Position numbers and translations under genes: made by a program. 64,000 bases of DNA, from positions 513,377 through 577,376 of the forward strand of contig JAHJQF010000001.1 in the NCBI GenBank assembly GCA_018819405.1. Reading direction: 5' to 3'. This DNA comes from Patescibacteria group bacterium (GTDB lineage Bacteria; Patescibacteriota; Patescibacteriia; UBA1558; GWA2-36-10). The notes beneath the pieces were generated by a model. The model saw nothing but the letters and a program-made list of their open reading frames with translations. It was not told where the DNA came from and did no database searches. Below, one piece after another: positions 12,313-63,357 of this stretch (the first letter of the stretch is position 1; each line of letters begins with the position of its first letter).

Positions 12313-12346
12313 AGAAGAAATTGTATATTTTTCCTTATAAAAAATC

Positions 12347-12380
12347 AACCCTTTGACTACGCTCAGGGTTGATTATTTTT
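12347..12380 (-). terminator. bidirectional hairpin terminator
   Basis: caaccct...agggttg stem with T-runs on both strands, between the 12381 stop and the miaBA start. Confidence 0.5.
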
Positions 12381-17104: not shown

Positions 17105-17398
17105 TGAAAATTAAAATAACCCAAGACTAGTTAAGTCTTGGGACCCTGAGTGACTCCTAAGGAGTCAAACGGGCGGTTCCACCCAAGTTCCTCCTATAAA
17201 AGGAGGCAACTCATTTATTTTATTGAGATTTAGTCCCTGTTTTGAGGGATTCCATATGCTGGAAGAATAGTTGGTTGCTATTCCAATCATCTAAGGCGTT
17301 TATAATTATAGCTCATTTTAATATTTGTTGTAAACTATTGACAAAATAGTAAATACATGATATACTTAGATATTATTTTGAACTTTAAATTAGGTCAA
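17105..17398 (-). promoter_or_regulatory. putative T-box riboswitch leader of thrS (promoter, stem I, T-box, terminator)
   Basis: The minus strand reads GGAGGAACTTGGGTGGAACCGCCCG, matching the T-box core GGGUGGNACCGC. It is followed by the terminator CCCAAGACTTAACTAGTCTTGGG and a T-run. AACTTGGG of the T-box can pair with the 5' arm of the terminator as an antiterminator. A TTGACC-17-TAATAT promoter lies at 17370-17398 on the minus strand. A candidate ACC specifier sits in the loop CAACCAA. Confidence 0.5.
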
Positions 17399-17502
17399 AA
17401 AATATGGCCTTAGCAGTTAGTTTGGATATAAATCATCTGGTCTGACTGCTACGGCTATAATGTAACACGGACGTAGTAAAACTCTAGAATTGGAGGAAAA
17501 TC

Positions 17503-42861: not shown

Positions 42862-44259
42862 ATGAATTTATCAACATTATTATTACTTTTGGTATATATA
42901 GTAAACGTAGGTCTTTTAGTATATGTTTTGTTTTCCAAAAATAAAAAAAAAGGCTGGCCGTTTTTTTGGATGTTGCTTTTGTTGATTTTATGGCAGAGTA
43001 CAGAATTATTTAGTATTATATATTTTGTTGACAAAGGAGAAACCCTTCTTCTTTTTGCTGTCAGAGCCGGGCTTTTGCCGACTCTTTATCTAGCGCCAGC
43101 TTTTTTGTGGCTGGTTTTTTCTTTGTTTGATAAATGGCAGACTTTCAAACCATGGCGCAAATTTTTGTATTTTCTACCGGCTATTATTATGTCGCCTTTT
43201 GCGTTTACAGATTTTAATACCAGTCAGGTAGTATTTGAGGATGAGAGGATATATTATGTTGGCGGGCCGATTTATTGGTTTTTTGCTGCCTACTTTATCA
43301 TATTGATGAGTTATGGCATGTATTTTTTGATCAAAAACAGAAAACAAGCCAAGGCTATAGTCAGGCGGCAAATAGATTATATTTTTATAGGGACTTTTTT
43401 GACAGCTGCTTGCGGATTGATATTTAACATATTATTGCCAATATTTGGTCTGAACAACTTATATTATCTGGGTGTAAATAGCACTATATTTTTTACAGCT
43501 ATTCTTACTTATGCACTTTTTAGGTATAGATTCTTTGATTTGTATATTTCTTTTTATCGTTTACTGATTGATTTTGTGCGTTTATTTTTTACAGGTTTGA
43601 TCTTTTATATTCTTTATATTTTGCTTTTTGATGTAGCAGATTTGGATTTTTCAGTGACTAGCAATGTCTTGTTGTTTTTGGTTATGATTGCTCTAGTTGG
43701 GCCATTTTTGTTTCGCTTGATAAATAAATTTTTTGTAGCTTATCTGGTCTATCCGGAAAATGACATCAAAAATTCAGAAAACAAAATTGCCGATATTTTG
43801 CGCTCCAGTCGTGATCTGGATGTTTTATTTTCACGTTTGGCTAGAGAGATAAGTAAAATAGTGGACTATCAGGACATTTATTTTTTTCTTTCCAAAAGAA
43901 AAAATGTCGATATGTTTTATCAGGTATTTCCGGTAGGCGAGAGACTGATGAGCAAGACAAATAGTGAGATGCTTTCTTATCTTGCTCGCAAACGAGAAGT
44001 TATAAATAAGGCAGAATTAGAATATATAGGCGCTGAGAAAAGCCTGCTGTCAGAATTGTCCGAAAAGCAAGTAGATCTGGTGTTGCCCATTTTTTATAAT
44101 CGTCAGCTTTTGGGAGCAATACTTATAAATAACAACAATGGTCTGGTATCTATCCAAAAAATACATTTTCTAAAACAGCTAAATAAATATCTAGACATTG
44201 CTATTGGTAGTCTGCTCTTGCATCAACAGGATATGGCGGAAAACAGTCCAAAAGTTTAA
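42862..44259 (+). CDS. 7TM membrane sensor protein (His-kinase-type 7TM N-domain + cytoplasmic domain)
   Basis: 465 aa. The N-terminal multi-TM region is similar to those of 44353, 45048 and the kinase at 51398. The C-terminal soluble domain may be GAF-like. Confidence 0.5.
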   Translation: MNLSTLLLLLVYIVNVGLLVYVLFSKNKKKGWPFFWMLLLLILWQSTELFSIIYFVDKGETLLLFAVRAGLLPTLYLAPAFLWLVFSLFDKWQTFKPWRKFLYFLPAIIMSPFAFTDFNTSQVVFEDERIYYVGGPIYWFFAAYFIILMSYGMYFLIKNRKQAKAIVRRQIDYIFIGTFLTAACGLIFNILLPIFGLNNLYYLGVNSTIFFTAILTYALFRYRFFDLYISFYRLLIDFVRLFFTGLIFYILYILLFDVADLDFSVTSNVLLFLVMIALVGPFLFRLINKFFVAYLVYPENDIKNSENKIADILRSSRDLDVLFSRLAREISKIVDYQDIYFFLSKRKNVDMFYQVFPVGERLMSKTNSEMLSYLARKREVINKAELEYIGAEKSLLSELSEKQVDLVLPIFYNRQLLGAILINNNNGLVSIQKIHFLKQLNKYLDIAIGSLLLHQQDMAENSPKV

Positions 44260-44352
44260 AGTTGAAAAGTATTAACATATAAAATTTGCGTAATTTTTAA
44301 TAATATGGTTATATAATTTGTTCAACTTTTAATTTTTTAACTTACTAACGGG

Positions 44353-45042
44353 ATGAGTATTCAAAACATTTTTCTCTTGATAGCCGCTATAGTCAATTTG
44401 CTTATGAGTATTGTTGTTTTTTCTCGCGGTATAAAAAACAAGGTAAACTTATATTTTGGCTTGCTGACTTTTTTTAATTTTTTATGGGCGCTTGGGCTGA
44501 TATTGGTGAATTTGGCTATTAGCTATGAGTTTACTAGATTTTTTGCCAGTTTTGTTTATCCGGTGGCCTTGATGGTAGTAGTTAGTCTTTATTATTTTAT
44601 TGTTTATTTCCCTTATAAAACTTTTGAATTGCCCAAGCTTTATAAAAATTTAATTACTTTTTTTGTGGGTCTAGTCACTTTATTTTGTATAGGAGCCTAT
44701 AAGATTTTTGTCCAAGATGTTTCTTTTAATCAAGGTGTTACGATTTTTTATGAAATGTGGAGCTATACATCTTATAGTATTTTGTTGGTTATATTAATGA
44801 TTCTTGGTATAGCTGTTTTATTTTCAAAGATTAAAAAAGCCGAGGGTATTTTTAAAGTGCAATTAAAATTAATTTTAATCGCGGTTATTATTGGTACAGC
44901 AGTTGGGAGTTATTCCAATTTATTTATGATGTATTTTTATAATTGTCAGTATAATCACCTAGGTCCTTTATTTACTTTATTTATCAACTTTGTAGTTTTT
45001 TATTTTATATTTTTTAGTCAAAAATCTAAACAGCTATCATAA
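44353..45042 (+). CDS. 7TM membrane protein, paralog A
   Basis: The N-terminus IAAIVNLLMSIVVFSRGIKNKVNLYFGLLTFFNFLWALGL is about 80% identical to the next gene over 50 aa. Confidence 0.5.
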   Translation: MSIQNIFLLIAAIVNLLMSIVVFSRGIKNKVNLYFGLLTFFNFLWALGLILVNLAISYEFTRFFASFVYPVALMVVVSLYYFIVYFPYKTFELPKLYKNLITFFVGLVTLFCIGAYKIFVQDVSFNQGVTIFYEMWSYTSYSILLVILMILGIAVLFSKIKKAEGIFKVQLKLILIAVIIGTAVGSYSNLFMMYFYNCQYNHLGPLFTLFINFVVFYFIFFSQKSKQLS

Positions 45043-45047
45043 ATACT

Positions 45048-45743
45048 ATGGTGATCACAACTTTACAATTACAAAATTTAACTTTGTTAATTGCGGCTAT
45101 CATAAATATAGTCATGAGTATATTTGTGTTGTCGCGCGGGCTTAAAAACAAAGTAAATTTATATTTTGGTCTGCTGACTTTTTTTAATTTTTTGTGGGCT
45201 TTGGGATTATTTTTGTCTAGGATTTTAGTGGATGATTTTACCGCTCAATTGCTTTATAGAACAGCGTATTTTGCCGCTATTTGGATAGCCGTATTTTTAT
45301 TTTATTTTACTCTAAATTTTCCTTATAAAATTAAGGATTTAAATAAGTATTATAGGTACTTTATTTGGTTTTTTTCGATATTAATATCTATACTAATTTA
45401 TACTAAATTTCATATAATTAGTTTTGAAAGAAGTGCAAACTTGGCAAATTGGTTTATGAATTATTATAAGCCATTTTACATAATTTATAGTATCTTCTTC
45501 TTTGTTTTAGTTTTGTTTGCAATTTATTTTTTAGTAGACAAGCTAGATAAAATAGAGGGATTTTTAAAGGATAAGATTAAGATATTATTATTTACCATAA
45601 TAATGGGCTTGATATTTGGCTCTTATTTCAATTTAATATTATGTTATTTCCAAAATTGGGATTATATATGGTTTGGGCCAATATTTACGGCTTTTATGAA
45701 TATTTATGTTTTTAGATTAATCAGCCTTTCCAAAGAAAGATAA
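45048..45743 (+). CDS. 7TM membrane protein, paralog B
   Basis: Tandem paralog of 44353. IAAIINIVMSIFVLSRGLKNKVNLYFGLLTFFNFLWALGL. Confidence 0.5.
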   Translation: MVITTLQLQNLTLLIAAIINIVMSIFVLSRGLKNKVNLYFGLLTFFNFLWALGLFLSRILVDDFTAQLLYRTAYFAAIWIAVFLFYFTLNFPYKIKDLNKYYRYFIWFFSILISILIYTKFHIISFERSANLANWFMNYYKPFYIIYSIFFFVLVLFAIYFLVDKLDKIEGFLKDKIKILLFTIIMGLIFGSYFNLILCYFQNWDYIWFGPIFTAFMNIYVFRLISLSKER

Positions 45744-45749
45744 TTTTTT

Positions 45750-46742
45750 ATGGCCAAAGCAAATAAAAAAATATATTTACTCTTAGCTGGCGGTACTTGT
45801 ATTTTGGATAAAGATAGCCGTATTTTTGCAATTAATGAAAAAAAAGACATTGATTATTGGTTTGATTTAATGCCAGAGCTGCGTATTTTGGCTGACATAG
45901 AAACAGTTTTGATTTCTAGCGAAGACCAAGTAGTAGACACTAGTGTCTGGCAGAAAATTGCCAAGAGTATTGTAGACAGAGAAAAATCAGCCGATGGTTT
46001 TGTAGTAGTGACAAAAATAGACCAACTTGTCAACACCTCTTTAGCAATTAATTTTTTGTTGCAGAATTTTAAAAAGTCTATTATTTTTACCAGTTCCCAA
46101 GTCAGCGGCAGTAGTTTTGTAGACAAAAAAGAAGTAATAAATAAACTAAAATCAAAACACGGTGGGTTAGGCCTAAGGACCAATTTGATAAACGCTATTC
46201 AAATTGCTTGTGAGCCTCTTCCACAGACAGCTGTTTTGTTTGGTACTAGGTTAATCGCTTCTACCAAAGCAATAGTAGATCTTCAGGATAGTATAAACAA
46301 TTTTATCAGTGTGGAAGGTAATTATTTAGCCAAAATTGATTTTGGTATAAATTTGAAATCGGGACTCAAATATTCCACCAAAAAAACAGAGATTTATCCC
46401 AGTATGTCAGCCAAAGTTTTGGCAATCTATGATATCCCAGGTATTGATTGGCAGTTTGAGCAAACTGATATGGCTAAATACGACGGGCTATTTATCAAAA
46501 TATCTCCCTTTCAAAACCTTGAAAATGTCAAAATAAAAAAAATAAATAATTGGAAAATACCGACAGTAATTTTTAATTCACGATATGTACCAGTTGTAAA
46601 AGGAGCGGTATCTGTATCAGGTTGTACTTTTAACTCAGCTCTTATCAAAACTATTTGGGCCTTGTCAAACAAAAAGAAACTACCAGATTTTGAAAATGTG
46701 ATGAAGCAAAATATAATTGGTGAGTTTAATTCACCCCGTTAA
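45750..46742 (+). CDS. asparaginase/glutaminase-family protein (putative)
   Basis: N-terminal IYLLLAGGTCIL resembles the TGGTIAG threonine motif of L-asparaginases. About 330 aa. The C-terminal SPR* is encoded by the palindromic element. Confidence 0.4.
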   Translation: MAKANKKIYLLLAGGTCILDKDSRIFAINEKKDIDYWFDLMPELRILADIETVLISSEDQVVDTSVWQKIAKSIVDREKSADGFVVVTKIDQLVNTSLAINFLLQNFKKSIIFTSSQVSGSSFVDKKEVINKLKSKHGGLGLRTNLINAIQIACEPLPQTAVLFGTRLIASTKAIVDLQDSINNFISVEGNYLAKIDFGINLKSGLKYSTKKTEIYPSMSAKVLAIYDIPGIDWQFEQTDMAKYDGLFIKISPFQNLENVKIKKINNWKIPTVIFNSRYVPVVKGAVSVSGCTFNSALIKTIWALSNKKKLPDFENVMKQNIIGEFNSPR

Positions 46743-46760
46743 ATAAATTTAAATCATAAT

Positions 46761-47018
46761 ATGAATCATTATGTATATATATTAAAAAGTAAGAAAGATA
46801 ATAACTTCTATGTAGGTTATACTAAAGATTTAAATTTAAGATTTAAGCAACACCAAGAAGCTAAAGTAGAATCAACTAAAAACAGAAGACCATTAAATTT
46901 GATATATTATGAATGTTGTTTAAATCAACAAGATGCTACTAAGAGAGAAAAATATTTAAAAACATATCTTGGTAGATATTATATCAAGAAAAGGCTTAAA
47001 TCTTATTTAACGGGGTAA
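46761..47018 (+). CDS. GIY-YIG nuclease family protein (85 aa)
   Basis: YVYILKS...NFYVGYTKDLNLRFKQH is a GIY-YIG motif. The gene is flanked by CCCCGTTAAAT (46736-46746) and ATTTAACGGGG (47005-47015), and its stop lies in the right repeat. Confidence 0.7.
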   Translation: MNHYVYILKSKKDNNFYVGYTKDLNLRFKQHQEAKVESTKNRRPLNLIYYECCLNQQDATKREKYLKTYLGRYYIKKRLKSYLTG

Positions 47019-47020
47019 AT

Positions 47021-47581
47021 ATGAAAATTTATTTTTATACCAATCAGGAGCTAAATAACACTGACGCCAAAGAAATTATCAATCACTTGAGGCGGGCAGA
47101 TATTGAGGTCATTAGTAGCTTGAGTAGCTCTTCAGATACGCAACTTGAAAGAGTGGATGCTTTTGTTTTTCAGGGACAAAAATTTGATACTAAGGCTGGA
47201 TATTTGACAGCTCTAGCTTTGGCGCAGAGCAAAGAGGTGCTTTGTCTTTTGCCTAGTGGTAGCAAAATTGATAGCTCGTTGGCCAGCCTGAGAGATAATA
47301 GGAATTTGGCCAAGCATTTATTGGTAGAATTTTATACTGATAGTGACTTGTCAGATAAACTGGAAAAATTTTTGACCAAATTGGACAAAAAAACTATCCG
47401 GGATTTGTTTAATATCAAATATACTTTGAGAGTATCGGGCAAGATAAATGATTATCTCAATTGGAAAGCCAGAGAAAAATCTGTCAAAAAAGCCGACTGG
47501 ATAAGGGACAACATACAGGATTTGATGAAAAATGATGAGAAATATCAGGATTTTTTAAAAAATAAATTTAAGGCTGGCTAA
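47021..47581 (+). CDS. hypothetical protein (possible nucleoside 2-deoxyribosyltransferase-like N-domain)
   Basis: ADIEVIS...DAFVFQGQKFDTKAGYLTALALAQSKEVLCLLP loosely resembles the NDT/Rcl fold. Low confidence. Confidence 0.3.
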   Translation: MKIYFYTNQELNNTDAKEIINHLRRADIEVISSLSSSSDTQLERVDAFVFQGQKFDTKAGYLTALALAQSKEVLCLLPSGSKIDSSLASLRDNRNLAKHLLVEFYTDSDLSDKLEKFLTKLDKKTIRDLFNIKYTLRVSGKINDYLNWKAREKSVKKADWIRDNIQDLMKNDEKYQDFLKNKFKAG

Positions 47582-50734: not shown

Positions 50735-51398
50735 TAATAAGGACATTTTAGTATTTTTTGATATAGATAATACAATAGTGGATGGTTATACACAGAAATA
50801 TTTTATTCAATTTTTGATGAATAAAGGTAAGATAAGTAAAAAATATTTATTATTTTTAGCAATTTGGTTTATATTATATAAATTAAAAGTTATAAAAAAT
50901 ACAAACAGAGCTATAAAATTTTATGTAGGTTTATTGAATGGTCTAAGCGAACAAGAACTACGGAACATTGTTGATGATTTTTTCCAAAGTAAAATAAAAA
51001 ATCATATTTTTTTAGGGGCATTAAGAGATGTTAAATATCATTTGAAGAATGGACACAATGTTGTATTTGTTTCTATGAGTTTAAAACCAATAGTAGAAAA
51101 AATAGCGGAGTATTTAAAAGTTAATTATGTTGTAGCCACTAATCTAGAGATATTAAATGGGGTTTATACTGGAAAAATTTTAGGGTATATAATAGAAGGA
51201 GATTTTCGTCTAAATGCCATAAAAGAATACATAAAAATGTTCGACAGTGATAAATTAATAACACATTTTTATACAGATCATTATTCAGATATACCAATTT
51301 TGAGATTAATTGATAGTCCGCATGTTGTTAATCCAGATAATATTTTATATAGAGAGGCAATAAAAAATAACTGGGAAATATTAAAATATAAGAAATAA
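50715..51398 (+). CDS. HAD-superfamily hydrolase (subfamily IB-like)
   Basis: FFDIDNTIVDG gives the DxDxT motif I. Confidence 0.6.
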   Translation: MRYMKIDNKDILVFFDIDNTIVDGYTQKYFIQFLMNKGKISKKYLLFLAIWFILYKLKVIKNTNRAIKFYVGLLNGLSEQELRNIVDDFFQSKIKNHIFLGALRDVKYHLKNGHNVVFVSMSLKPIVEKIAEYLKVNYVVATNLEILNGVYTGKILGYIIEGDFRLNAIKEYIKMFDSDKLITHFYTDHYSDIPILRLIDSPHVVNPDNILYREAIKNNWEILKYKK

Positions 51399-54205
51399 TG
51401 AATGCTTTTGCTTTTTCAAGTTTAGTTACTAGTATTTGGAGCTTTGTATTAGCTAGTTTTGTTTTTATCAAGAATAAGAATAGATCAAGTATCTTATGGG
51501 CTAGAACCAGTGTGTCTATCGGATTTTGGAGCATGGGTTTGTTTGGTGTAACATTTTTTAAAAATTATCAATATGCCTATTTGTCACAAATAATTCTAGA
51601 TATAGGTGCTATATTTTTGCCAGTGTTTTTTGTAGATTTTGTAGCAAATTTAACAGAGGAGGGGAATAAATACAAGAAATTCATTAGATTTAATTATATA
51701 TTTGCAATATTTTTATCATTATTTAGCTTGACCCCATATTTTAAGACAGGTTTAAAGTCAGTATTTAATTTTGAGTATTGGATAAATCCAGGACCATTAT
51801 ATTTTGTATTTCCAGTATTTTTTATGGTATTAGCAATATTTTCTGTATTTTTGTTAATTAGCAATCGGAAAATGTCTTTAGGTCTTAAAAGGCAACAAAT
51901 AAAGTATGTCTTATACTCGGCTTTTATTGGTTTTGGTGGTGGAGCCTTCAACTTCCTGCCACAATTTTCACATATATATCCCATAGGTAATTATTTAGTA
52001 GGATTTTATGCTTTAGCGATTACTTATGCAATAATTAAGTATCGTTTAATGAATATCCGTCTAATCCTTACCCGTAGTATATTGTACGGTGTCTTAGTAG
52101 CTGCTGTAGCTGCTTTTTTTGCCCTATCGGTATTGGTAGTAGGTGAGGCTGTTGGGGGCAATACCAAAACTAGCAAAATAATTACCTATATTATTACTTC
52201 ATTTATAGTGGTTGTATTTTTGGATCCAGTTAAGCGCACTTGGGCCAAAGTGACAGATAAAATATTTTATAAAGACAAAATAGATTATCAGGATGCTTTG
52301 CAGCAGGCTAGTACTATATTGGCTAGAGAAATTGACTTGCAAAAATTATTGCAAAAATTATCTAAACTCTTGACCATTAGGCTCAAAATAAAAAATATAG
52401 CTGTATTAATTCCAGAAAATGGCATTTTTTATTCAGTAAAGCCTGTGTTGTCTGAAAAAAATAATCCAGGAATTAGTGTTTCGCAGAATTTTGTTGCTTA
52501 TCTTAATAATAATAAAGAGTTGTGTATAATAGAGGAAATTATCCGCGGTAGTAAGGAAGGAGAAATCAGCCAACAAACTCAAGATTTTATAAAAGAAGCA
52601 GAAAACTTAAAAATAGAAGTAGTGGTCCCTATAGTAGAGTCAGAAAATATTACTGCTATATTTCTTATCAGCGCCAAGCAATCGGGTGACCTTTACAATG
52701 ATGATGATGTCAATTTTTTCAAAGTACTCACTCCTCAGGTGGCCAATGCCATAGAAAAGTCCAAGCTTTATGAGGAAGTGGAGCAGTTCAATAGAGAATT
52801 GCAGCAAAAAGTAGAGGATAGGACCAAAGATCTCAAGCAGGTCAATCTGGCGTTGGAGGATAGAAACAAATTTTTGACTACCATGCAAGTAGTTATTAAT
52901 ATGGTTAGTCGCACTCTAGATCTTAAAAAAGTCAATCAAATGATCGCCGATTCTATTGCCAAAGAGCTTGGTTATGTTGGCGGTATTTTGAGTTTTGTAG
53001 ACAGCGAAAAAAAAGTTTTGCGTGTAGGGGCTATTACGTCCAATGAAAATGCTCAAAAAGCTTTTCGGATGCTTGCTCAAGAGCCACGTGAATATGAAAC
53101 AAACCTAGAAAATAATTATAATTTGTCAGCCCAAACATTTCTCAATGGAAAGATAAATTTTTCCGATAAGATGTCAGACTTTTTGTCCCCGCCGGTAGAA
53201 AAAGAGGCAATAGACAAAATTCAAGAAATTTTGGGTATCAAGACAGTGGTTGGTGTGCCTATATTTTCTGAAGCCAAGATAATCGGTGTGATTCAATTTT
53301 ATCTGCCAGTCAAACAGGATAAAATATCAGCTCTTGATATAGAAATTATGACAGCACTTACCAACCAAGTAGGTATAGTATCTCGCAACTTGAAATTGTA
53401 CAAAAATCTTCAAAAAGCCAATATGGATTTGCAGGATGCTAATATCCGTTTGCGCGAGCTGGACAAAGCCAAAAGTGAATTTTTGTCCATTGCTTCTCAT
53501 CAGCTACGCACTCCTATATCAGCTATCAAAGGGTATTTGTCTATGATGATAGACGGTGATTTTGGTAAAATACCACCAAGCATCTCTGCTGTGATAGCCA
53601 ATCTTTTTGAGAGTTCCGCCAGGCTGGCCAGGCTGATAAATATATTTTTGAACGTATCACGCATTGAATCAGGACGTCTCAAGCTGGAGAAAAAACCCAT
53701 CCAGATAAATGATATGATAGAAAGTGTGATGATGGAACTTGTCAATCAGGCCAATCAAAAAGGCGTAAAACTCAAATACAAAAAAGCCAAAAAAGCTCCG
53801 CCACTTATATTGGCTGATGCCGACAAGCTGCGCGAAGTAGTACTCAACTTGGTAGACAATGCTATCAAATATACTCCAGAGGGCAAGATTGATGTGATGG
53901 TAGAATATGACAAGGCCAATCTAAAGTTTTTGGTCAAAGACACTGGTATTGGTATAGATCCAATGGAGGCCAAGACTTTGTTTAGAAAGTTTGTCCGAGG
54001 TAGTGGTGTAGCCCAGATTCACACCGGCGGATCCGGTTTAGGATTATTTATTGCTCAAAAGATTATCAAAGAACACGGCGGTAATATCTGGGTAGAGAGT
54101 GAAGGCAAGGGTAAAGGCTCAGTATTTCAATTTGAAATACCAATATATGACGGACATGAAGTACCGGAGTATAAAAAAGAGGCAGAGGATAGTAAGAGTA
54201 AATAA
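51398..54205 (+). CDS. sensor histidine kinase with 7TM N-domain, GAF domains, HisKA and HATPase_c
   Basis: H-box LSIASHQLRTPISAIKGY. N, G1 (DTGIGI) and G2 (GGSGLGL) boxes. N-terminal 7TM like the paralogs at 42862-45743. Confidence 0.8.
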   Translation: MNAFAFSSLVTSIWSFVLASFVFIKNKNRSSILWARTSVSIGFWSMGLFGVTFFKNYQYAYLSQIILDIGAIFLPVFFVDFVANLTEEGNKYKKFIRFNYIFAIFLSLFSLTPYFKTGLKSVFNFEYWINPGPLYFVFPVFFMVLAIFSVFLLISNRKMSLGLKRQQIKYVLYSAFIGFGGGAFNFLPQFSHIYPIGNYLVGFYALAITYAIIKYRLMNIRLILTRSILYGVLVAAVAAFFALSVLVVGEAVGGNTKTSKIITYIITSFIVVVFLDPVKRTWAKVTDKIFYKDKIDYQDALQQASTILAREIDLQKLLQKLSKLLTIRLKIKNIAVLIPENGIFYSVKPVLSEKNNPGISVSQNFVAYLNNNKELCIIEEIIRGSKEGEISQQTQDFIKEAENLKIEVVVPIVESENITAIFLISAKQSGDLYNDDDVNFFKVLTPQVANAIEKSKLYEEVEQFNRELQQKVEDRTKDLKQVNLALEDRNKFLTTMQVVINMVSRTLDLKKVNQMIADSIAKELGYVGGILSFVDSEKKVLRVGAITSNENAQKAFRMLAQEPREYETNLENNYNLSAQTFLNGKINFSDKMSDFLSPPVEKEAIDKIQEILGIKTVVGVPIFSEAKIIGVIQFYLPVKQDKISALDIEIMTALTNQVGIVSRNLKLYKNLQKANMDLQDANIRLRELDKAKSEFLSIASHQLRTPISAIKGYLSMMIDGDFGKIPPSISAVIANLFESSARLARLINIFLNVSRIESGRLKLEKKPIQINDMIESVMMELVNQANQKGVKLKYKKAKKAPPLILADADKLREVVLNLVDNAIKYTPEGKIDVMVEYDKANLKFLVKDTGIGIDPMEAKTLFRKFVRGSGVAQIHTGGSGLGLFIAQKIIKEHGGNIWVESEGKGKGSVFQFEIPIYDGHEVPEYKKEAEDSKSK

Positions 54206-54217
54206 TATTAGTTTTAT

Positions 54218-54251
54218 TACCGCCGCGGCAAAGCCGCGGCGGTTTTTTTAT
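54218..54251 (+). terminator. rho-independent terminator
   Basis: accgccgcgg caaa gccgcggcggt followed by ttttttt. Confidence 0.85.
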
Positions 54252-54259
54252 TATTTCTA

Positions 54260-54306
54260 TTGACAAGTTATTTCTATTGCTATAAACATAGCGACGGCTC
54301 TAGAAA
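54260..54306 (+). promoter_or_regulatory. promoter plus palindromic operator-like motif upstream of the radical-SAM gene
   Basis: TTGACA, a 15-bp spacer, TATAAA. GCTATAAACATAGC-GACGGCTCTAGAAA shares a 20-plus-nt core with 60948-60975. Confidence 0.5.
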
Positions 54307-54368
54307 ATGTCCTCTCACAATTTTGTCTTTTTGGTCTAGAAACCTTGGTGCTTAGAAAGGAGCATATT

Positions 54369-55388
54369 ATGTTTTGCTGGCTTACCGTTAACAGATCTTG
54401 TAACATGCGTTGCCATTGGTGCTACGCTAAAGAAAAGATTGATAGTTCTTCTAGTATGACTCTAGATGTTCTGGAGTCAATATTGAGTGTGGTGGCTAAT
54501 AAACCAATAAACGTTTTTACACTTATTGGTGGAGAGCCAACCATACACAAAGATCTATCGTCTTTCATCAAGCGCCTCAAGCCATCACGAGTAATGATGG
54601 TAAGTAATGGTTTGAGATTGGCAAATATGTCATATTTGTTCAATCTCAAGGAGAGTGGTTTGGATGTAGTAGCTCTTTCTTTGAAAGGGGCAAATCAAGC
54701 GGAGTACCTAAAAAACACTGGTGTGCCAGGATTGGATAAGGTAGAACGGGCGGTAGCTAATATGAATGCTTTGGGCATGCAGTACAATATTTCGGTTACG
54801 TTTTCAGATAGTGTCATGGATTCGTTGCCGATGATATTGGATTGGATGCAATCATCCAATGCTCAAAGTATGTCTATAAACTATTGCCGACCTTATGTAG
54901 TCGACGGTAGAATCAGTGCACAGGGGGTTCCTAGCCCCGTAGAGATGGCAGAAAGGACAGTGCAGAGTTACGAGCTGATCAGGAAAAGCGGAGTACGCTG
55001 TACCTTTTCTTTCTTGTTGCCGCTGTGTTTGTTGCCGCGGGAGTTTATTGACTTGCTAGTCTCAAGGAATGAACTCTCAACAATCTGTCAACTTCAGAAG
55101 CATACAGGTATCATTTTTGAACCAGATGGTAGTCTAATCCCTTGTCATCATTTGTTTGACTACAAGCTCGGGAAGCTTGGAGAGGATTTTACTACCGCTG
55201 CGGAATTTGATACCTTTATGGAAGGAGGTAAAATATCAAGGTTTTATCGTAAGACAGGCGGTTTTCCACACGAAAAATGTTTGTCTTGCGATTTGCGAAC
55301 AAGGTGTGGTGGAGGCTGCTTGGTACAACACCTGCAGTATTCTCCTAGTGAATTAATACCCCAAGCTTTTGAAAGGATGGAGAAATGA
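54369..55388 (+). CDS. radical SAM / SPASM-domain peptide-modifying enzyme
   Basis: CNMRCHWC (CxxxCxxC) at the N-terminus. C-terminal SPASM CLSCDLRTRCGGGC. Start at ATG 54369, preceded by AAAGGAG. Confidence 0.8.
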   Translation: MFCWLTVNRSCNMRCHWCYAKEKIDSSSSMTLDVLESILSVVANKPINVFTLIGGEPTIHKDLSSFIKRLKPSRVMMVSNGLRLANMSYLFNLKESGLDVVALSLKGANQAEYLKNTGVPGLDKVERAVANMNALGMQYNISVTFSDSVMDSLPMILDWMQSSNAQSMSINYCRPYVVDGRISAQGVPSPVEMAERTVQSYELIRKSGVRCTFSFLLPLCLLPREFIDLLVSRNELSTICQLQKHTGIIFEPDGSLIPCHHLFDYKLGKLGEDFTTAAEFDTFMEGGKISRFYRKTGGFPHEKCLSCDLRTRCGGGCLVQHLQYSPSELIPQAFERMEK

Positions 55389-55546
55389 ACAACAACCAGT
55401 CTGATCTTCGGCAGATCGTCGATGATATGCTGGACAAGCGTATCGAGACGGGAGAAGATCTCAGTGGCTTCAGCATCCGTGGTGCTGTGGCAGGAGAGAT
55501 GATCTGTGGCGACTGCGGAGATGGCGATTGCGAATGTAGCTCGTAG
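55385..55546 (+). CDS. 53-aa Cys-rich peptide, putative RiPP precursor (not in the ORF track)
   Basis: ATGA overlap with the radical-SAM stop. Translation MNNNQSDLRQIVDDMLDKRIETGEDLSGFSIRGAVAGEMICGDCGDGDCECSS. About 52% GC. Hairpin after the stop. Confidence 0.5.
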   Translation: MNNNQSDLRQIVDDMLDKRIETGEDLSGFSIRGAVAGEMICGDCGDGDCECSS

Positions 55547-55601
55547 AGCTCTTCGTGATTTTACGGGGGTATGTCTGTAGCATGCCCCCACAATAAAGTT
55601 T

Positions 55602-56120
55602 ATGAAATTTATATATAACAAAGAAATTGACCAGCAGTGTCATGATAGATTGTCAGCTCATGATAGTATTTTTGGTGAAGTCAAAAAAACTGGCAGCTAC
55701 CCAGTGACCGAAGAGATTGTCAAACAGTTTAATGATAAATGGACAGAAGAAATTGATAAATATTTTGTAGCTGGTATATATAAAATATTTAAAAAATCAA
55801 TTCCAGAAAATTTTACAGTATATATAAATTCCACGCCTTATTCTATGGATATAGAGGACGGAATATCTATTTCAGCCTCATCTATCAATGTAATGATAAT
55901 GCTTGTTTGCCACGAGGCCAATCACTATATGTTTAGAAAGAGTGATTATAAAAATAAATATTTTCCAAATAAAGATATAGAAGAGGCTAAAGAGATTTTT
56001 ACAGTAGTAAATAATATTTATTTCAAAGATATTATGGAAAAAGAGGACAAGGCTTGGAGTAAATTTTTTGAAGAAAGAGAACAATTTTTACAACGATGGA
56101 AAGATCGCTTTGCCGGGTAA
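55602..56120 (+). CDS. HExxH-motif protein (putative zinc metallopeptidase)
   Basis: 172 aa containing VCHEANHYMF. Sits downstream of the peptide. Confidence 0.45.
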   Translation: MKFIYNKEIDQQCHDRLSAHDSIFGEVKKTGSYPVTEEIVKQFNDKWTEEIDKYFVAGIYKIFKKSIPENFTVYINSTPYSMDIEDGISISASSINVMIMLVCHEANHYMFRKSDYKNKYFPNKDIEEAKEIFTVVNNIYFKDIMEKEDKAWSKFFEEREQFLQRWKDRFAG

Positions 56121-56291: not shown

Positions 56292-56320
56292 TTGACAACA
56301 ATTTGAGGATGCCTTATAAT
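56292..56320 (+). promoter_or_regulatory. consensus sigma70 promoter of the proBCA leader
   Basis: TTGACA, exactly 17 bp, then TATAAT. Confidence 0.65.
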
Positions 56321-56331
56321 TTTTGATAGTT

Positions 56332-56473
56332 ATGAAAAAATTATTCAGCAACAACCAAGCCCCGCATCCTCGCGAAATAGATTTTAGCGCCCGCTAAGGG
56401 ATGTTGTTGTTTTGAATATATTAAGTATAAATTTTATTAAGTAATAACTCTTGGCAGCGGCTAAGAGTTTTTT
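56332..56473 (+). promoter_or_regulatory. proB leader: 21-codon uORF plus an intrinsic terminator 6 nt before the proB ATG (attenuator-like)
   Basis: uORF MKKLFSNNQAPHPREIDFSAR at 56332-56397. Hairpin ctcttggcagcggctaagag plus tttttt at 56448-56473. Confidence 0.4.
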
Positions 56474-58439: not shown

Positions 58440-59699
58440 ATGAATAAAGATATTATCATTATTGGAAAGAGAGCTAAGGATGCTTCTCGGGAATTTGCTA
58501 CTGCAAGTAGTCAGCAAAAAAATGCGTTGCTGACTACTCTGGCATCTATGATAGCCTTTTATAAAAAGCAAATTCTTGATGCCAACAAAAAAGATCTATC
58601 AAATTATGTTAAAGATCATCCATTTTTTGATCGTCTAATGCTCAATGATTAGCGTCTGGATGAAATTAGACGTAGTTTGTTGGCTGTAGCCAAATTGCCT
58701 GATCCAATAGGAGAAATATCAGATGAAAAACGTCGTCCTAGCGGTATAGTAGTGTCCCGTATGAGAGTGCCTTTGGGTGTATTGGGAGTTATTTATGAAG
58801 CTAGACCAAATGTGACTATAGAGATTTCTAGTTTGGGGCTCAAATCGGGTAATGCTATTGTACTCAAGGGTGGTAAAGAAGCTATAAATAGTAATCAGAT
58901 TTTGGTAAAGATTATCCAAAAAGCCTTGGTCAAAAATGGATTTTCTAAATATACTGTTCAGCTTATCGGCACAAATCAGCGTAGTTTGGTGGCTGATATG
59001 ATAAGGATGAATAAATATATAGATGTTATAGTCCCTCGTGGAGGCAGGAGACTGATTGATTTTGTCAGAGACAATGCCTCGGTGCCTGTGATTGAGACCG
59101 GAGCAGGAGTTTGCCATACTTATGTAGAAAAAAGTGCTGATTTGAAAAAAGCCGTAAGGATTGTGGTGAATGCCAAGACCCAGCGGCCAAGTGTCTGTAA
59201 TGCTTTGGATACTTTGGTACTAGACAGTCAGATTGCCAAAAAGTTTTTGGCGTTATTGTCAGAGGAGCTGTCAAAGCACAGTGTGTTACTGCGCGCCGAT
59301 TCGGTCAGCTATTATATATTAAAAAAATATTATCCCAACAGTTTATTAAAAAAAGCTAAATTGTCAGATTTTAGCAAAGAATTTTTGGGTTTGGAGATGT
59401 CTATCAAAACAGTCAATAATGCTAAACAAGCTATGGATTTTATACAAGAGTATAGTTCGGGACATTCAGAAGCAATTTTGACCAAAAATGCCAAACTGGG
59501 ACAAATTTTTTTGAGGACAATTGATGCCGCAGCAGTCTATGTTAATACTTCCACTCGTTTTACAGATGGTTTTGAATTTGGTCTGGGTGCTGAAGTAGGT
59601 ATTTCTACTCAAAAATTGCACGCCAGAGGTCCTATGGGTCTCAAGGCGCTTACTAGTATGAAGTGGATTGTAAATAGTGATTGGAAGGGCAGGAAATAA
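58440..59699 (+). pseudogene. proA: gamma-glutamyl phosphate reductase interrupted by one in-frame TAG (codon 71)
   Basis: ORFs 58440-58652 and 58677-59699 are in the same frame and together span full-length ProA. They are separated only by TAG at 58650-58652. There are no other lesions. Confidence 0.5.
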
Positions 59700-60856: not shown

Positions 60857-60898
60857 ACAACCTCCGAGGTTAATCAACCTCCGAGGTTGTTTTTTTAC
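60857..60898 (+). terminator. rho-independent terminator
   Basis: caacctccgagg...cctccgaggttg followed by ttttttt. Confidence 0.7.
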
Positions 60899-60928
60899 TT
60901 GACAGTCTTTTTTTGTTGTTATATATTT

Positions 60929-60975
60929 AGAGTAGAAGCTAGAGACGGCTATAAATATAGCGACGGCTCTAAACA
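60929..60975 (+). promoter_or_regulatory. palindromic operator-like motif, copy 2 (upstream of the NTase-GNAT operon)
   Basis: GCTATAAATATAGC-GACGGCTCTAAACA preceded by the half-site AGAGACGGCT. Same core as 54279-54306. Confidence 0.5.
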
Positions 60976-61033
60976 TAGCTCTTTAAAATAAAGAGAGAAA
61001 GGTAATTGACTTCCTAAGAGAAAGGAGGAAATC

Positions 61034-61987
61034 ATGACTCAGCAAACTTTGTGTTGCTACGATTTGATTATGGTCAGGTCGGGCGAAATACTCACAATAA
61101 ATGGTAACTTTGATGGAGAATATTGCCGTGCTACTTTGAGCTTGTTTCCCTCTTCTATGGGGAATAGGCTTATAGACGGCCGTGTATATAAGAAAGCAAC
61201 TTATGAGTTGGGATATAAGATTCCCTACGTCAGGAAGATATTAGATTTACCTGGTCAGCAGCAGTTTTTGGTAGACAGGAACAGCATCGTCAGAGTGTAT
61301 TCTGCAAGGAGAGCTTTTGACTCTTTGTCCTTTCAGGATAAAATTAGGACGCGTTTGTTCATGGACTATCTGGGTCTAGATTACAATTTTCACGGTTTGA
61401 CTGGTAGTAGTGCATCGGGCTGTCGGCTCTCTGACTCTGACTTTGATTGGGTTTTGTATACCAATCAATTATGGTCAGTTAAACAGAGGGTAGTTGATGT
61501 CCCTAGGATGTTGACTTTCGATATGCAACACGCTTATCGAAAGTATCATGTCTTTGAGGTGCTGTCTAAGCAGGACATAGATTTGATTTTTGGCAATAAG
61601 TGGAAGTATCTATGGTTTTGCGGTCTGCACATATCAGTTAATTTTGTTGATATGGCTGTACGCGCTGACCACCTTTGCGATACTGACAATTGCCGAGATC
61701 GTCTTGTTTTGCGAGGTAGGGTAATAGATGGGAAAGGCTCCTATTACTCTCCTTATGTCATTCCATTCGAAAGCGATGGGCAGACGTACCAGATACTCAC
61801 TTGGCTTTATTTGTATAATGGAGCCTTTGCATCTGGTGACCTAATAGAGCTATCAGCTCGGAGAGGATCTTTTGGAGGGCAGGAGTATTTGGTAGTCGAA
61901 AGACCACCAGATTACATTCGTAAGTTGGTCTGCAAGGATGGAGGAGGCTATGTCTCTGATAGACTATATTCAGCTAGTAGTAGCTGA
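61034..61987 (+). CDS. Pol-beta-superfamily nucleotidyltransferase (cGAS/DncV-like arrangement)
   Basis: GLTGSSASGCRLSDSDFDW gives GS-x9-SDSD at residues about 115-133, with the acidic DIDLIF about 60 aa later. Ribosome-binding site GAAAGGAGG. About 42-45% GC. Confidence 0.5.
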   Translation: MTQQTLCCYDLIMVRSGEILTINGNFDGEYCRATLSLFPSSMGNRLIDGRVYKKATYELGYKIPYVRKILDLPGQQQFLVDRNSIVRVYSARRAFDSLSFQDKIRTRLFMDYLGLDYNFHGLTGSSASGCRLSDSDFDWVLYTNQLWSVKQRVVDVPRMLTFDMQHAYRKYHVFEVLSKQDIDLIFGNKWKYLWFCGLHISVNFVDMAVRADHLCDTDNCRDRLVLRGRVIDGKGSYYSPYVIPFESDGQTYQILTWLYLYNGAFASGDLIELSARRGSFGGQEYLVVERPPDYIRKLVCKDGGGYVSDRLYSASSS

Positions 61988-62447
61988 AGACAGTAGAATC
62001 GTCGAGTTGTGTGAGTTTTTGAGTCGGGAGGACATAGACCGTTCTTTTGTCCTACCATTGTCTAGTAGGGACATTAGCATTAGAGAAAGGGTGGTAAAAA
62101 TACAAAAGCAAGGTTTTTGGTTGCTGGCTATACATGGAAACAAAATAGTTGGCTGCCGTGGCTGCAAAGGAATTGTTGACGAAAAGGAGGATATTTTGGA
62201 GTTTTCCACCACAGTTGTTGACCCTAGTTATCGGGGGATTGGTTTGGGGATGCTTATCTTCCGACAAGGGGTCAAGTTAGCTCGTGATCGGTATAAGCCC
62301 AAAGTCGTGAGGATGGACAGTACGCCTGATAATGAAGCCATCAAGAGGATGGCTGCCGATTCAGGTTTTGTTGTAAGTCGTATCTACGACGATCCTGTAA
62401 AAAGAGGCTCTGGAGGAAAGTCAATCGAATATATTCTCTGTTTATAG
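61950..62447 (+). CDS. GNAT family N-acetyltransferase
   Basis: Motif A VVDPSYRGIGLGMLIFRQGVKLA. Ribosome-binding site GGAGGAGG. Overlaps the NTase by 38 nt. Confidence 0.65.
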   Translation: MSLIDYIQLVVAEDSRIVELCEFLSREDIDRSFVLPLSSRDISIRERVVKIQKQGFWLLAIHGNKIVGCRGCKGIVDEKEDILEFSTTVVDPSYRGIGLGMLIFRQGVKLARDRYKPKVVRMDSTPDNEAIKRMAADSGFVVSRIYDDPVKRGSGGKSIEYILCL

Positions 62448-62515
62448 CCCCTGTGCCACAAGGTGCAGGGGCATCCAATATTGTTAGTTGTTTGATAAAT
62501 TATTATAATAAATGT

Positions 62516-63328
62516 ATGAAAATAAAGATATTAGGATCAGGAGCTTGGCAAGGTATTCCAGCATCGTTTTGTAACTGCGATATTTGTCAGAAGGCATCCA
62601 AAAATTTATATACTAAAGACGCTCGTACTCGTCCACAATTTATGGTTGAGACCAAACAGGGGACTTTCTTGATGGAAATAAGCCCTGATATAAGGCTGCA
62701 ATCCACCAGGTTTTCTTTACCAAACGTTAATAATTTTTTAGTAAGTCATTGGCATTTTGATCACATGTATGGTTTGCATGAACTTTTGACTTGGTCAAAG
62801 GGATTGGAGACTAGGCCATTGTTATACGGATCTGTTGCCACAAAAGATAAAATAGATAAAGAATTTAGTTATTTGCCATTTGATTTTCAGTTGTTAGAGC
62901 CCTATAAAAAATTTAATATTTTCGGGGTAGATATAACACCATTGCCTTTATATCATGCATTTACAATAGATGAAGAATTTTCAGAAAATGATATTAATAA
63001 CACTTTTGGATATATGCTGGGGCATGAAGGAAAAAAAGTAGTTTATTTATCAGATTATTATAAAGTACCGCAGAAAGTTTTGGATAAAATCAAAGGAGCT
63101 GATGTGTTGATTGCAGACGGCACTTATCTTTTTACTGATAAGTTCAGAGGAATAAAACTAAATCATTTGCATAATGTAGATATATTGCAGTTAGTTGATA
63201 AAATTCAGGCAAAACAAGTTTATTTTCATAGTATTTCCCATTTGACCAGTTTGAACCATCAGGAAATGCAAGAAAAATTGTCAGAAAACCATTTTATTTC
63301 ATACGACGGTTTAGAAATTGATCTTTAA
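62516..63328 (+). CDS. PhnP-like MBL-fold phosphodiesterase
   Basis: CNCDIC (CxCxxC) near the N-terminus plus SHWHFDHMYG (HxHxDH). Start at the internal ATG (MKIKILGSGA). Confidence 0.55.
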   Translation: MKIKILGSGAWQGIPASFCNCDICQKASKNLYTKDARTRPQFMVETKQGTFLMEISPDIRLQSTRFSLPNVNNFLVSHWHFDHMYGLHELLTWSKGLETRPLLYGSVATKDKIDKEFSYLPFDFQLLEPYKKFNIFGVDITPLPLYHAFTIDEEFSENDINNTFGYMLGHEGKKVVYLSDYYKVPQKVLDKIKGADVLIADGTYLFTDKFRGIKLNHLHNVDILQLVDKIQAKQVYFHSISHLTSLNHQEMQEKLSENHFISYDGLEIDL

Positions 63329-63357
63329 TAAATAGTATAAAAACCACCGAGGAGAAA

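Follow-up and report, generated by a model that had tools for sequence, protein, structure and literature searches.

A palindromic motif shared by two operons of a Patescibacteria genome is the core of a promoter-hairpin module found ahead of different gene cassettes in related genomes

Our results support the view that the palindromic sequence shared by two operons of the 64-kb stretch of DNA analysed here (the window) is a conserved promoter-associated cis-element, and neither a chance similarity nor a dispersed repeat. It forms part of a module of about 100 nt, composed of a strong promoter of the sigma-70 type (TTGACA-N17-TATATT), a spacer of 11-12 nt, a 32-nt imperfect hairpin and usually the box RAAAATGTCCTCTACAAT, and this module was also present in seven further contexts from related Patescibacteria, where it heads differing cassettes. 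The module and its conservation, the geometry of its promoter, the covariation of its stem and the exchange of cassettes with the corresponding breakpoints were all observed in the aligned sequences. The function that we tentatively propose, at somewhat less than an even chance, is that of a portable promoter-leader module in Komeilibacteria-like Patescibacteria (CPR), in which the motif would be the conserved core and its hairpin would be transcribed as a 5' leader to which a putative factor binds.

The 23-nt core GCTATAAAYATAGCGACGGCTCT had exactly two matches in the window with up to three mismatches allowed, at 54279-54301 (site 1) and 60948-60970 (site 2), both on the + strand, and its chance expectation was 0, as no match occurred in any of 100 dinucleotide-preserving shuffles. 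The two sites are identical at 23 of 24 positions once the base after the core (A) is counted, and when the two intergenic regions were aligned this 24-nt identity stood as an island amid otherwise unalignable DNA. The sequence-only reading had described a shared core of more than 20 nt, found at these places and nowhere else in the window, and had placed it 50-70 bp upstream of genes; both of its quoted strings were recovered there, and the measured distances to the start codons are 62 nt (ATG 54369) and 58 nt (ATG 61034). The inverted repeat that it had pointed out is present at both sites, as GCTAT-N4-ATAGC at site 1 and as GCTATA-AA-TATAGC at site 2. The ribosome-binding sites of the two operons are GAAAGGAG and AAAGGAGGAA, and at each site an intrinsic terminator and then a TTGACA hexamer precede the core. 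Pfam placed proB, proC, proA and ddl between the two sites, in agreement with the earlier description of loci that flank proBCA-ddl; the proA reading frame is broken by an in-frame TAG. A covariance model built from nine instances of the module gave no third copy in the window, and a weak third site at 17295-17312, with ACGGCTATAAT at 17452, was discarded since the model did not support it.

Side-by-side alignment of the nine instances defined the module. TTGACA-N17-TATATT is found in six modules (site 2 and five relatives), and in these the hairpin base lies 11-12 nt past the -10, a fixed geometry from which a transcription start about 5-6 nt before the stem is predicted. The box RAAAATGTCCTCTACAAT was present in 7/9 instances; its ATG lies 4 nt past the hairpin and opens an upstream ORF of 10-18 codons in most modules, and in the L014 context it is the start codon of the headed gene itself. 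GACGGC is repeated at 18-bp spacing in 8/9 instances, the T-rich promoter spacer is alike between modules, and every instance is located at or just past a promoter. The conserved block is about 60 nt long and is asymmetric outside its central 14 nt. The hairpin is predicted to lie inside the transcript for the six modules with the complete TTGACA/TATATT promoter, marginally so for L014, which fits poorly (just 2 nt separate its -10 from the hairpin base, and its outer stem is imperfect), and not for site 1; the L078 sequence ends upstream of its -10-like hexamer. The loop region holds -10-like hexamers (TATAAA/T), so that a second, internal promoter is possible, and in several modules TTGAAA or TTTAAA, which resemble a -35, lie 17-18 nt upstream of the loop -10.

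Site 2 carries the complete module, followed by a three-gene cassette (61034..63328), as follows.
60875-60889: terminator of ddl, directly before promoter P1
60899..60927, + strand: promoter P1, TTGACA-N17-TATATT (-10 at 60922-60927), matching 11/12 consensus positions and the same in five relatives
60940..60971, + strand: complete 32-nt imperfect hairpin, outer stem TAGAG/CTCTA, loop AAAT (RNAalifold, pair counts and folds)
60944..60979, + strand: two tandem 18-nt units, GACGGCTATAAATATAGC and GACGGCTCTAAACATAGC, each with 0 mismatches to the unit consensus; same arrangement in L012
60980..61033, + strand: NTase-specific part of the predicted 5' UTR, with hairpin CUCUUUA...UAAAGAG (minimum-free-energy fold of 60934-61045, z = -1.9)
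61034-61987, + strand: OB-fold/NTase-like protein, first gene of the cassette
61938-62447, + strand: GNAT acetyltransferase, second gene
62453-63328, + strand: MBL-fold hydrolase, third gene
63330..63343, + strand: candidate box remnant AAATAGTATAAAAA, just past the MBL stop (by eye, against L012 9661-9683 and L082 2465-2490)

The site-2 hairpin starts 12 nt past the -10, at about +6 of the predicted transcript, and the near-consensus promoter thus places the motif in a predicted 5' UTR. The extra half-site that had been noticed in this copy is real, but a direct repeat of 18 nt in tandem describes it better; its second unit belongs to the NTase-type leader. Further downstream, a predicted hairpin pairs CUUCCU (61010-61015) with AGGAGG (61023-61028) and would sequester the ribosome-binding site. 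The NTase-GNAT-MBL trio also occurs in L012 and L077 and partly in L076. The candidate box remnant would put the NTase cassette between the hairpin and the box, a placement in which we have low confidence. Defence-system and NCBIfam scans were uninformative for the NTase-like protein and for the 172-aa and 142-aa proteins.

Site 1 carries a derivative module with the radical-SAM cassette (54369..56120), and its features are given below.
54219..54250, + strand: intrinsic terminator (11-bp GC-rich stem, then a T run) of the upstream 7TM-GAF histidine-kinase gene (51398-54205)
54261..54266, + strand: -35 hexamer TTGACA, 12 nt before the motif and 15 nt before an internal TATAAA
54279..54302, + strand: core GCTATAAACATAGC GACGGCTCTA, inner palindrome and right hairpin strand, 55.3 bits by the covariance model
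54303..54321, + strand: box GAAAATGTCCTCTCACAAT, with ATG 54307-54309 opening a 10-codon upstream ORF (54307-54339)
54369-55388, + strand: radical-SAM/SPASM enzyme, first gene of the cassette
55385-55546, + strand: 53-aa Cys-rich precursor peptide ending in ...ICGDCGDGDCECSS, overlapping the radical-SAM gene
55602-56120, + strand: 172-aa protein, third gene, assigned to no family by the scans

The kinase terminator forms the left edge of the site-1 intergenic region. Site 1 keeps the module from GCTAT to ACAAT, an identity island of 43 nt when compared with the other modules and 93% identical to L081 2193-2234, and it lacks the TATATT -10, the first 18-nt unit, the left outer arm and the left GACG. 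Its TTGACA with the following 13-nt T-rich spacer resembles the -35 region of the module, so this hexamer is probably the module's own -35, drawn near by an internal deletion of about 32 nt; such a deletion would yield exactly the spacing of site 1, with TTGACA 15 nt before the internal TATAAA. The upstream units missing at site 1 are present in L078 ahead of the orthologous radical-SAM cassette. Since TTGACA lies only 12 nt upstream, the motif overlaps the -10 region here, and since the hexamer precedes the place of the hairpin base by 4 nt, no transcript started from this promoter can include the left arm. A substitute outer stem, TTTCTA/TAGAAA, was not significant and could be due to chance (P about 0.04-0.09). 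The element had been called operator-like at both loci, and it does head both operons; the geometry, however, differs between them, a predicted 5' UTR at site 2 and an overlap with the -10 at site 1. The radical-SAM protein of the window is identical to MBU1202968.1 (Patescibacteria group bacterium), and the trio of radical-SAM enzyme, peptide and 172-aa protein recurs in other CPR loci.

The contexts found in relatives, with what follows the module in each, were the following.
L012 (Logan SRR28219341): NTase-GNAT-MBL
L016 (JGI metagenome): 30-aa peptide and radical-SAM enzyme
L014 (JGI metagenome): asparaginase-like gene
L078 (ENA assembly): radical-SAM orthologue, 75% amino-acid identity
L081 (Logan): M15 peptidase-Ddl-SHMT-methyltransferase-ATP-grasp
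L082 (Logan): empty site, no cassette
L084 (Ca. Komeilibacteria GCA_001818445.1): M15 peptidase-Ddl

The L078 context was met again in L079 and L080, and the L084 context in L083 and L085-L087. The conserved promoter therefore leads into five different cassette types, and at L082 into none. The covariance model, which was built from these same nine instances, scored all nine at 55-78 bits (relatives 56-78) and had no other match in the 205 kb made up of the window and the CPR loci, each relative locus carrying one module. Distant orthologues did not have the motif upstream, neither those of the radical-SAM enzyme at 56-68% identity (L009, L011) nor those of the NTase at 45-56% (L076, L077). 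An exact-pattern scan of GTDB representative genomes, with a pattern requiring GGCTCT, which is absent from the Komeilibacteria copy, gave six matches in unrelated phyla, about the chance level, with no relatives and no source genome. Viral contigs gave 57 chance matches without shared context and none under a stricter pattern; the metagenome pattern scan gave five matches, two of them real (L014 and L016) and three by chance in coding DNA. A search of the literature on CPR promoters, regulons and radical-SAM peptides returned nothing relevant.

These contexts change the interpretation of the two window copies. The sequence-only reading had suggested that the radical-SAM and NTase loci may form one regulon, which was not supported: in relatives the same module heads other genes or none, and L012, in the stretch read, has the NTase cassette with no radical-SAM cluster nearby. 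The module heads whichever cassette fills the locus, which makes it a shared expression signal and not a private link between two operons. What had been proposed as a regulon of two loci is better described as a single cassette locus with two heads, which share a lineage-wide expression module. The possibility of a common repeat unrelated to promoters was also checked: there are two copies in 64 kb, one in each relative locus and no other in 205 kb, and all are at operon heads. REP- or MITE-like dispersed palindromes were rejected on the same grounds, namely the low copy number within these 205 kb and the constant position.

The hairpin is composed, from the base inwards, of a 5-bp outer stem, an A.G mismatch, CG/CG pairs, a GA bulge, the inner stem GCUAU/AUAGC and a variable 4-nt loop, and RNAalifold returned the same 12-bp consensus helix as the structure drawn by hand. 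Of the alignment cells, 91.7% were paired, compared with 12-50% when the partners were slid, and the covariation score was reached by 0/500 shuffles, with three pairs changing on both sides in 8 cells; this covariation comes from three stem variants only, which could have spread through whole-module transfer. The variants are TAGAG/CTCTA (site 2 and L016), TATAG/CTATA (L012 and L081) and ATAAG/CTTAT (L082, L078 and L084), and in each of them the two arms are fully complementary. Although the flanking DNA of L081 and L082 is 84% identical, the two carry different variants, which speaks against co-evolution with a DNA-binding protein. Between the window and L012, the near-identical NTase leaders differ at column 36 (C and A, respectively), and each base fits the left arm of its own genome. 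The inner palindrome GCTAT/ATAGC is unchanged in 8/9 instances; in L078 it is GCGAT...ATAGC, with one pair broken and the rest kept. The unpaired A, GA and G are invariant and the 4-nt loop varies. An invariant inner stem and invariant unpaired bases beside a variable loop are the usual pattern of a hairpin recognised by a protein; the near-invariant inner 5+5 is compatible with a sequence-specific factor. The compensatory substitutions of the outer stem point to a nucleic-acid structure and not to half-site contacts. The inner stem never covaries, so its sequence and not its pairing may matter, which would equally suit a double-stranded DNA operator. Single-sequence folds were of modest energy (-6 to -12.6 kcal/mol, z -0.2 to -3.3), and a competing fold is the minimum-free-energy structure in L012, L081 and L014.

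Three points are inferred here: transcription of the hairpin, an action of it at the level of RNA and the existence of a trans-acting factor. In the mechanism that we favour, the hairpin would be transcribed as the extreme 5' end of the mRNA and would act in cis on this RNA, as a protective 5' stem-loop and/or as the site of a sequence-specific factor encoded elsewhere, and this putative factor would set the output of every cassette behind the module. The module may in addition serve as a homology anchor for cassette exchange between genomes, because it is the only sequence common to otherwise unrelated cassettes.

On balance unlikely, and nevertheless to be taken seriously, is an operator in double-stranded DNA, in which a putative factor, dimeric or binding in tandem, would recognise GCTAT-N4-ATAGC and/or the GACGGCT repeats spaced by 18 bp. 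One example would be a response regulator paired with the orphan 7TM-GAF histidine kinase encoded alongside. Repression would be exerted by occlusion of the -10 at site 1 and by a block to elongation at about +14 to +45 in complete modules. The inner palindrome, invariant except for one base of L078 while the 4-nt spacer varies, the regular 18-bp spacing of GACGGC in all instances but one and the constant position at a promoter all fit such a site; the overlap with the -10 position at site 1 is a classic location for a repressor, and a palindrome kept at site 1 without the full hairpin is easier to understand if the target is double-stranded DNA. In the window, L012 and L084 the module region is moreover closely preceded by a histidine-kinase gene, and in L081 and L082 a kinase-homologous 3' end lies upstream. 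Against this, Pfam found no HTH, winged-helix or response-regulator domain in the window (ORFs of at least 110 aa, and of at least 60 aa for 46-64 kb, apart from spurious overlapping ones), nor was any DNA-binding regulator called in the relatives' loci. The compensatory changes of the outer arms, seen even in close relatives, are unlike half-site recognition, the block of about 60 nt is too large for a typical operator and asymmetric beyond the central 14 nt, and the palindrome is broken in L078 with the remainder kept. The single dimeric regulator of the sequence-only reading is supported as far as a conserved palindrome at promoters goes, and is not supported in that Pfam showed no transcription factor encoded in the 64-kb window and in that the element is far larger than an operator.

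It is very improbable, in our judgement, that the shared 24 nt have no dedicated function and merely reflect recent common descent, the promoter region having been duplicated in the course of cassette shuffling and the core overlapping an internal -10 (TATAAA) and the initial transcribed sequence. The likeness of the T-rich promoter spacer between modules does speak for shared ancestry, and the loop region would make a good -10, preceded at 17-18 nt by TTGAAA/TTTAAA in several modules and at 15 nt by TTGACA at site 1. A neutral relic is nevertheless hard to reconcile with a hairpin core at least 90% identical between genomes whose flanking genes are only about 69% identical (DNA) and whose immediately surrounding sequence diverges, with an outer-stem pairing kept by compensatory changes, or with an identity confined to a 24-nt island (43 nt against other modules) in DNA that cannot be aligned.

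The run of acyltransferase, HAD and 7TM/GAF histidine-kinase genes is syntenic with Candidatus Komeilibacteria GCA_001818445.1, the kinases being 68% identical in amino acids, and in most relatives read a hypervariable locus lies between the 7TM-GAF histidine-kinase gene and an RHS/YD-toxin operon. The order in L012 and L081 is (kinase)-hydrolase-88aa-[module]-[cassette]-62aa membrane protein-YD/CHAP-~235aa-RHS toxin, with which L082 agrees over its short contig. L081 and L012 are about 89% identical up to GACGGCTATA inside the module; beyond it come unrelated cassettes (5.1 and 2.35 kb, respectively), and the alignment resumes immediately ahead of the 62-aa gene. Compared with L012, the window shows 69% identity in the flanks and 93% in the NTase cassette, whose leader and NTase gene reach 99-100%; the identity jumps at GACGGC, inside the hairpin, and this indicates a recent transfer between species. 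The NTase cassette is inserted after GACGGCT and the other cassettes after ACAAT, and at the left end of the M15 cassette the beginning of the 62-aa gene is partly duplicated. Three independent assemblies end at the core, L013 between GACGGCT and ATAAAC and L079 and L080 six nt before AGCGACGGCT, as expected if several contexts in those populations share the core. L012 lacks what separates the two window copies (radical-SAM cluster, proBCA, ddl), and the window has two module-headed cassettes in tandem within the same variable locus. This locus runs past the end of the window, into a 53-aa membrane-protein gene (also called as 41 aa) and CHAP and RHS genes in L001.

These swaps could also be produced by a recombination site or hotspot, in which a hairpin of single-stranded or cruciform DNA, served by a recombinase or HUH nuclease encoded elsewhere, would capture cassettes behind a resident promoter, the two window copies being a duplicated site around a 6.7-kb insertion; we consider this improbable. 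It would account for unrelated cassettes directly downstream of the module in collinear genomes, for the empty site, for the breaks inside the hairpin (window against L012) and at the exact start of L013, for the segment between the copies that L012 lacks, and for the conserved unpaired bases, and a good fold of the + strand is also obtained with DNA parameters (z -2.4 to -4.2). The loci themselves do not favour it: no recombinase, integrase, transposase or HUH gene was found in the window or in the kinase-to-RHS loci of L012, L081, L082 and L084. The right-hand cassette junctions of L012 and L081 have no hairpin and no shared repeat and differ from each other, and a search for a repeat of the module at cassette 3' ends gave only the degenerate box remnant after the NTase cassette. 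There are at least two left insertion points, a role in expression gives a better account of the fixed spacing to a strong promoter, and the partial duplicate at the M15 left end looks like untidy homologous or illegitimate recombination. That the module is the landing pad of an integron-like gene capture in CPR, with the recombinase or HUH nuclease elsewhere in genomes of about 1 Mb, is in our estimate quite improbable, and the same low estimate applies jointly to the wider picture of peptide natural-product, cell-wall-remodelling and nucleic-acid-modifying NTase cassettes being swapped between species beside an RHS toxin operon. The promoter-leader hairpin is kept here as the preferred, tentative reading.

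CPR/Patescibacteria have tiny genomes with few recognisable regulators, and their gene control is almost wholly obscure. The module is a compact cis-element from which the missing regulator can be sought, and it marks the head of a hypervariable accessory locus; its covariance model provides a sequence handle for finding accessory and host-interaction cassettes in metagenomes. The exchange described here also documents the transfer of a near-identical cassette between CPR species whose neighbouring genes are only about 69% identical. As an RNA element, the hairpin would be a portable expression signal for organisms that are still uncultured; as a recombination site, it would represent a new gene-capture platform.

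As compared with known systems, the module shares features with several and coincides with none of them. The guanidine-II riboswitch (mini-ykkC, RF01068) was considered because of the ACGG/GACG motifs, and both are short tandem hairpin-forming units with these motifs, but the genes downstream of the module have nothing to do with guanidine handling, ACGG is part of an internal loop and not of a tetraloop, and no Rfam match was obtained at E<=10, so this candidate was rejected. Rfam 15, run on the whole window at the gathering threshold and on three module regions at E<=10, returned only tRNAs and noise. Dimeric repressors such as LexA, NrdR and Fur bind shared palindromic operator boxes across a regulon. 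The 14-bp dyad of the module, with invariant 5+5 and a free spacer, sometimes in tandem and placed at several operon promoters, is similar to these, whereas the block of about 60 nt, its asymmetry and the outer arms that covary as a helix are not. To our knowledge, its sequence fits none of the familiar operator boxes. With regard to a palindromic-operator regulon, a dyad at promoters was found here, and a cognate regulator and co-regulation of the same genes were not.

Bacterial stem-loops that stabilise the 5' end or bind a regulator include the ompA 5' UTR hairpin, the ermC and aprE leaders, lambda nut boxB and the LoaP-dependent leader hairpin. The module is like them in having a portable hairpin a few nt from the start (here predicted) of long operons, with a conserved stem, conserved unpaired bases and a variable loop; it differs in showing no relationship to them in sequence or in Rfam and in that site 1 cannot form the hairpin in RNA from its own promoter. 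For a structured leader RNA, the alignment provides compensatory changes, from three stem variants only, and Rfam provides no family match. The integron, with its Pc promoter, attI site and cassettes, is the third comparison: both systems place a resident promoter and a short structured site before unrelated, apparently promoterless cassettes, and both show an empty site. The module loci (window, L012, L081, L082 and L084) differ in having neither intI nor any other recombinase nearby, the cassettes have no attC-like 3' hairpin, there is no GTT crossover core, the insertion points are not unique, and the window holds two modules and not one. Thus, of the marks of an integron, a promoter leading into variable cassettes and an empty site were found, and intI and attC were not. 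By analogy with these systems, the module would appear to work most like a promoter-proximal leader hairpin or an operator, while its behaviour in genomes resembles that of an integron Pc-attI platform.

Position 1 of three contigs from independent assemblies (L013, and the radical-SAM orthologue loci L079 and L080) falls exactly at the core of the promoter-hairpin module shared by the two window sites, the end point being GACGGCT|ATAAAC in L013 and 6 nt ahead of AGCGACGGCT in L079 and L080. Because three independently assembled contigs end exactly there, the module core is suggested to be a branch point common to several genomic contexts in those communities. The NTase-GNAT-MBL cassette headed by the second site (window 60899-63343) was 93% identical to that of the relative's locus L012 (7233-9673), and its leader and NTase gene reached 99-100%, whereas the neighbouring genes were only 69% identical. 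This difference indicates that the cassette was recently exchanged horizontally between CPR species. In the NTase 5' UTR (window 61010-61028), CUUCCU can pair with AGGAGG and sequester the gene's own ribosome-binding site; the same pairing was found in L012, and it may be a layer of translational control particular to this cassette.

Short ORFs were also found in the M15 peptidase-Ddl cassettes of two relatives and elsewhere in the window and L012:
L081 2245-2271, 8-codon upstream ORF (MKKSIFES)
L084 4434-4460, 8-codon upstream ORF (MKKNNFGI)
window 46729-47022, GIY-YIG nuclease ORF of 85 aa
L012 11846-12140, its counterpart
The 8-codon ORFs are similar to the opening codons of the 62-aa membrane-protein gene, the usual follower of the module, and look like a partial duplication left behind by cassette insertion. 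The GIY-YIG ORFs are about 90% identical, but their location differs between the genomes, following an asparaginase-like gene in the window and lying between a ~235-aa gene and an RHS toxin gene in L012; this is probably a mobile homing-type gene.

The pro genes between the two sites showed the following features:
window 56292-56473 region, promoter ahead of proB with perfect consensus TTGACA-N17-TATAAT
window 56332-56397, 21-codon upstream ORF MKKLFSNNQAPHPREIDFSAR between this promoter and proB
window 56446-56469, terminator-like hairpin, its 3' end 4 nt short of the proB start
window 58440-59699, proA (gamma-glutamyl-phosphate reductase) with an in-frame TAG at 58650-58652
The proA frame resumes immediately past the TAG (...LMLND*RLDEIRRSLLAVAKLP...), and gene calls on a Logan contig from another sample (L001), whose ddl-NTase intergenic region is identical to the window's, also give a two-part proA. 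The split may reflect a pseudogene, readthrough at this site or recoding of the stop codon.

Elsewhere in the window, three consecutive ORFs of 465, 229 and 231 aa (42862-45743) match histidine kinases solely in the N-terminal 7TM part (PF16927) and lack kinase domains; the full-length 7TM-GAF kinase (51398-54205) lies a few kb downstream of them. In one 688-aa ORF (10282-12348, minus strand), a MiaB-like radical-SAM methylthiotransferase (UPF0004 and Radical_SAM) is fused with a MiaA isopentenyl-transferase domain (IPPT), combining two successive steps of tRNA-A37 modification in a single polypeptide.

The proB promoter, upstream ORF and hairpin may together form an attenuator-type leader; the region 56292-56473 had no Rfam match. 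The radical-SAM cassette holds a further small ORF:
window 55385-55546, unannotated 53-aa ORF overlapping the radical-SAM stop codon (ATGA), with C-terminal end ICGDCGDGDCECSS
In L008-L011 and L078, counterparts of 49-61 aa come after the orthologues of the enzyme. The 53-aa ORF probably encodes a precursor peptide, whose product would be of the thioether type (ranthipeptide/SCIFF-like).
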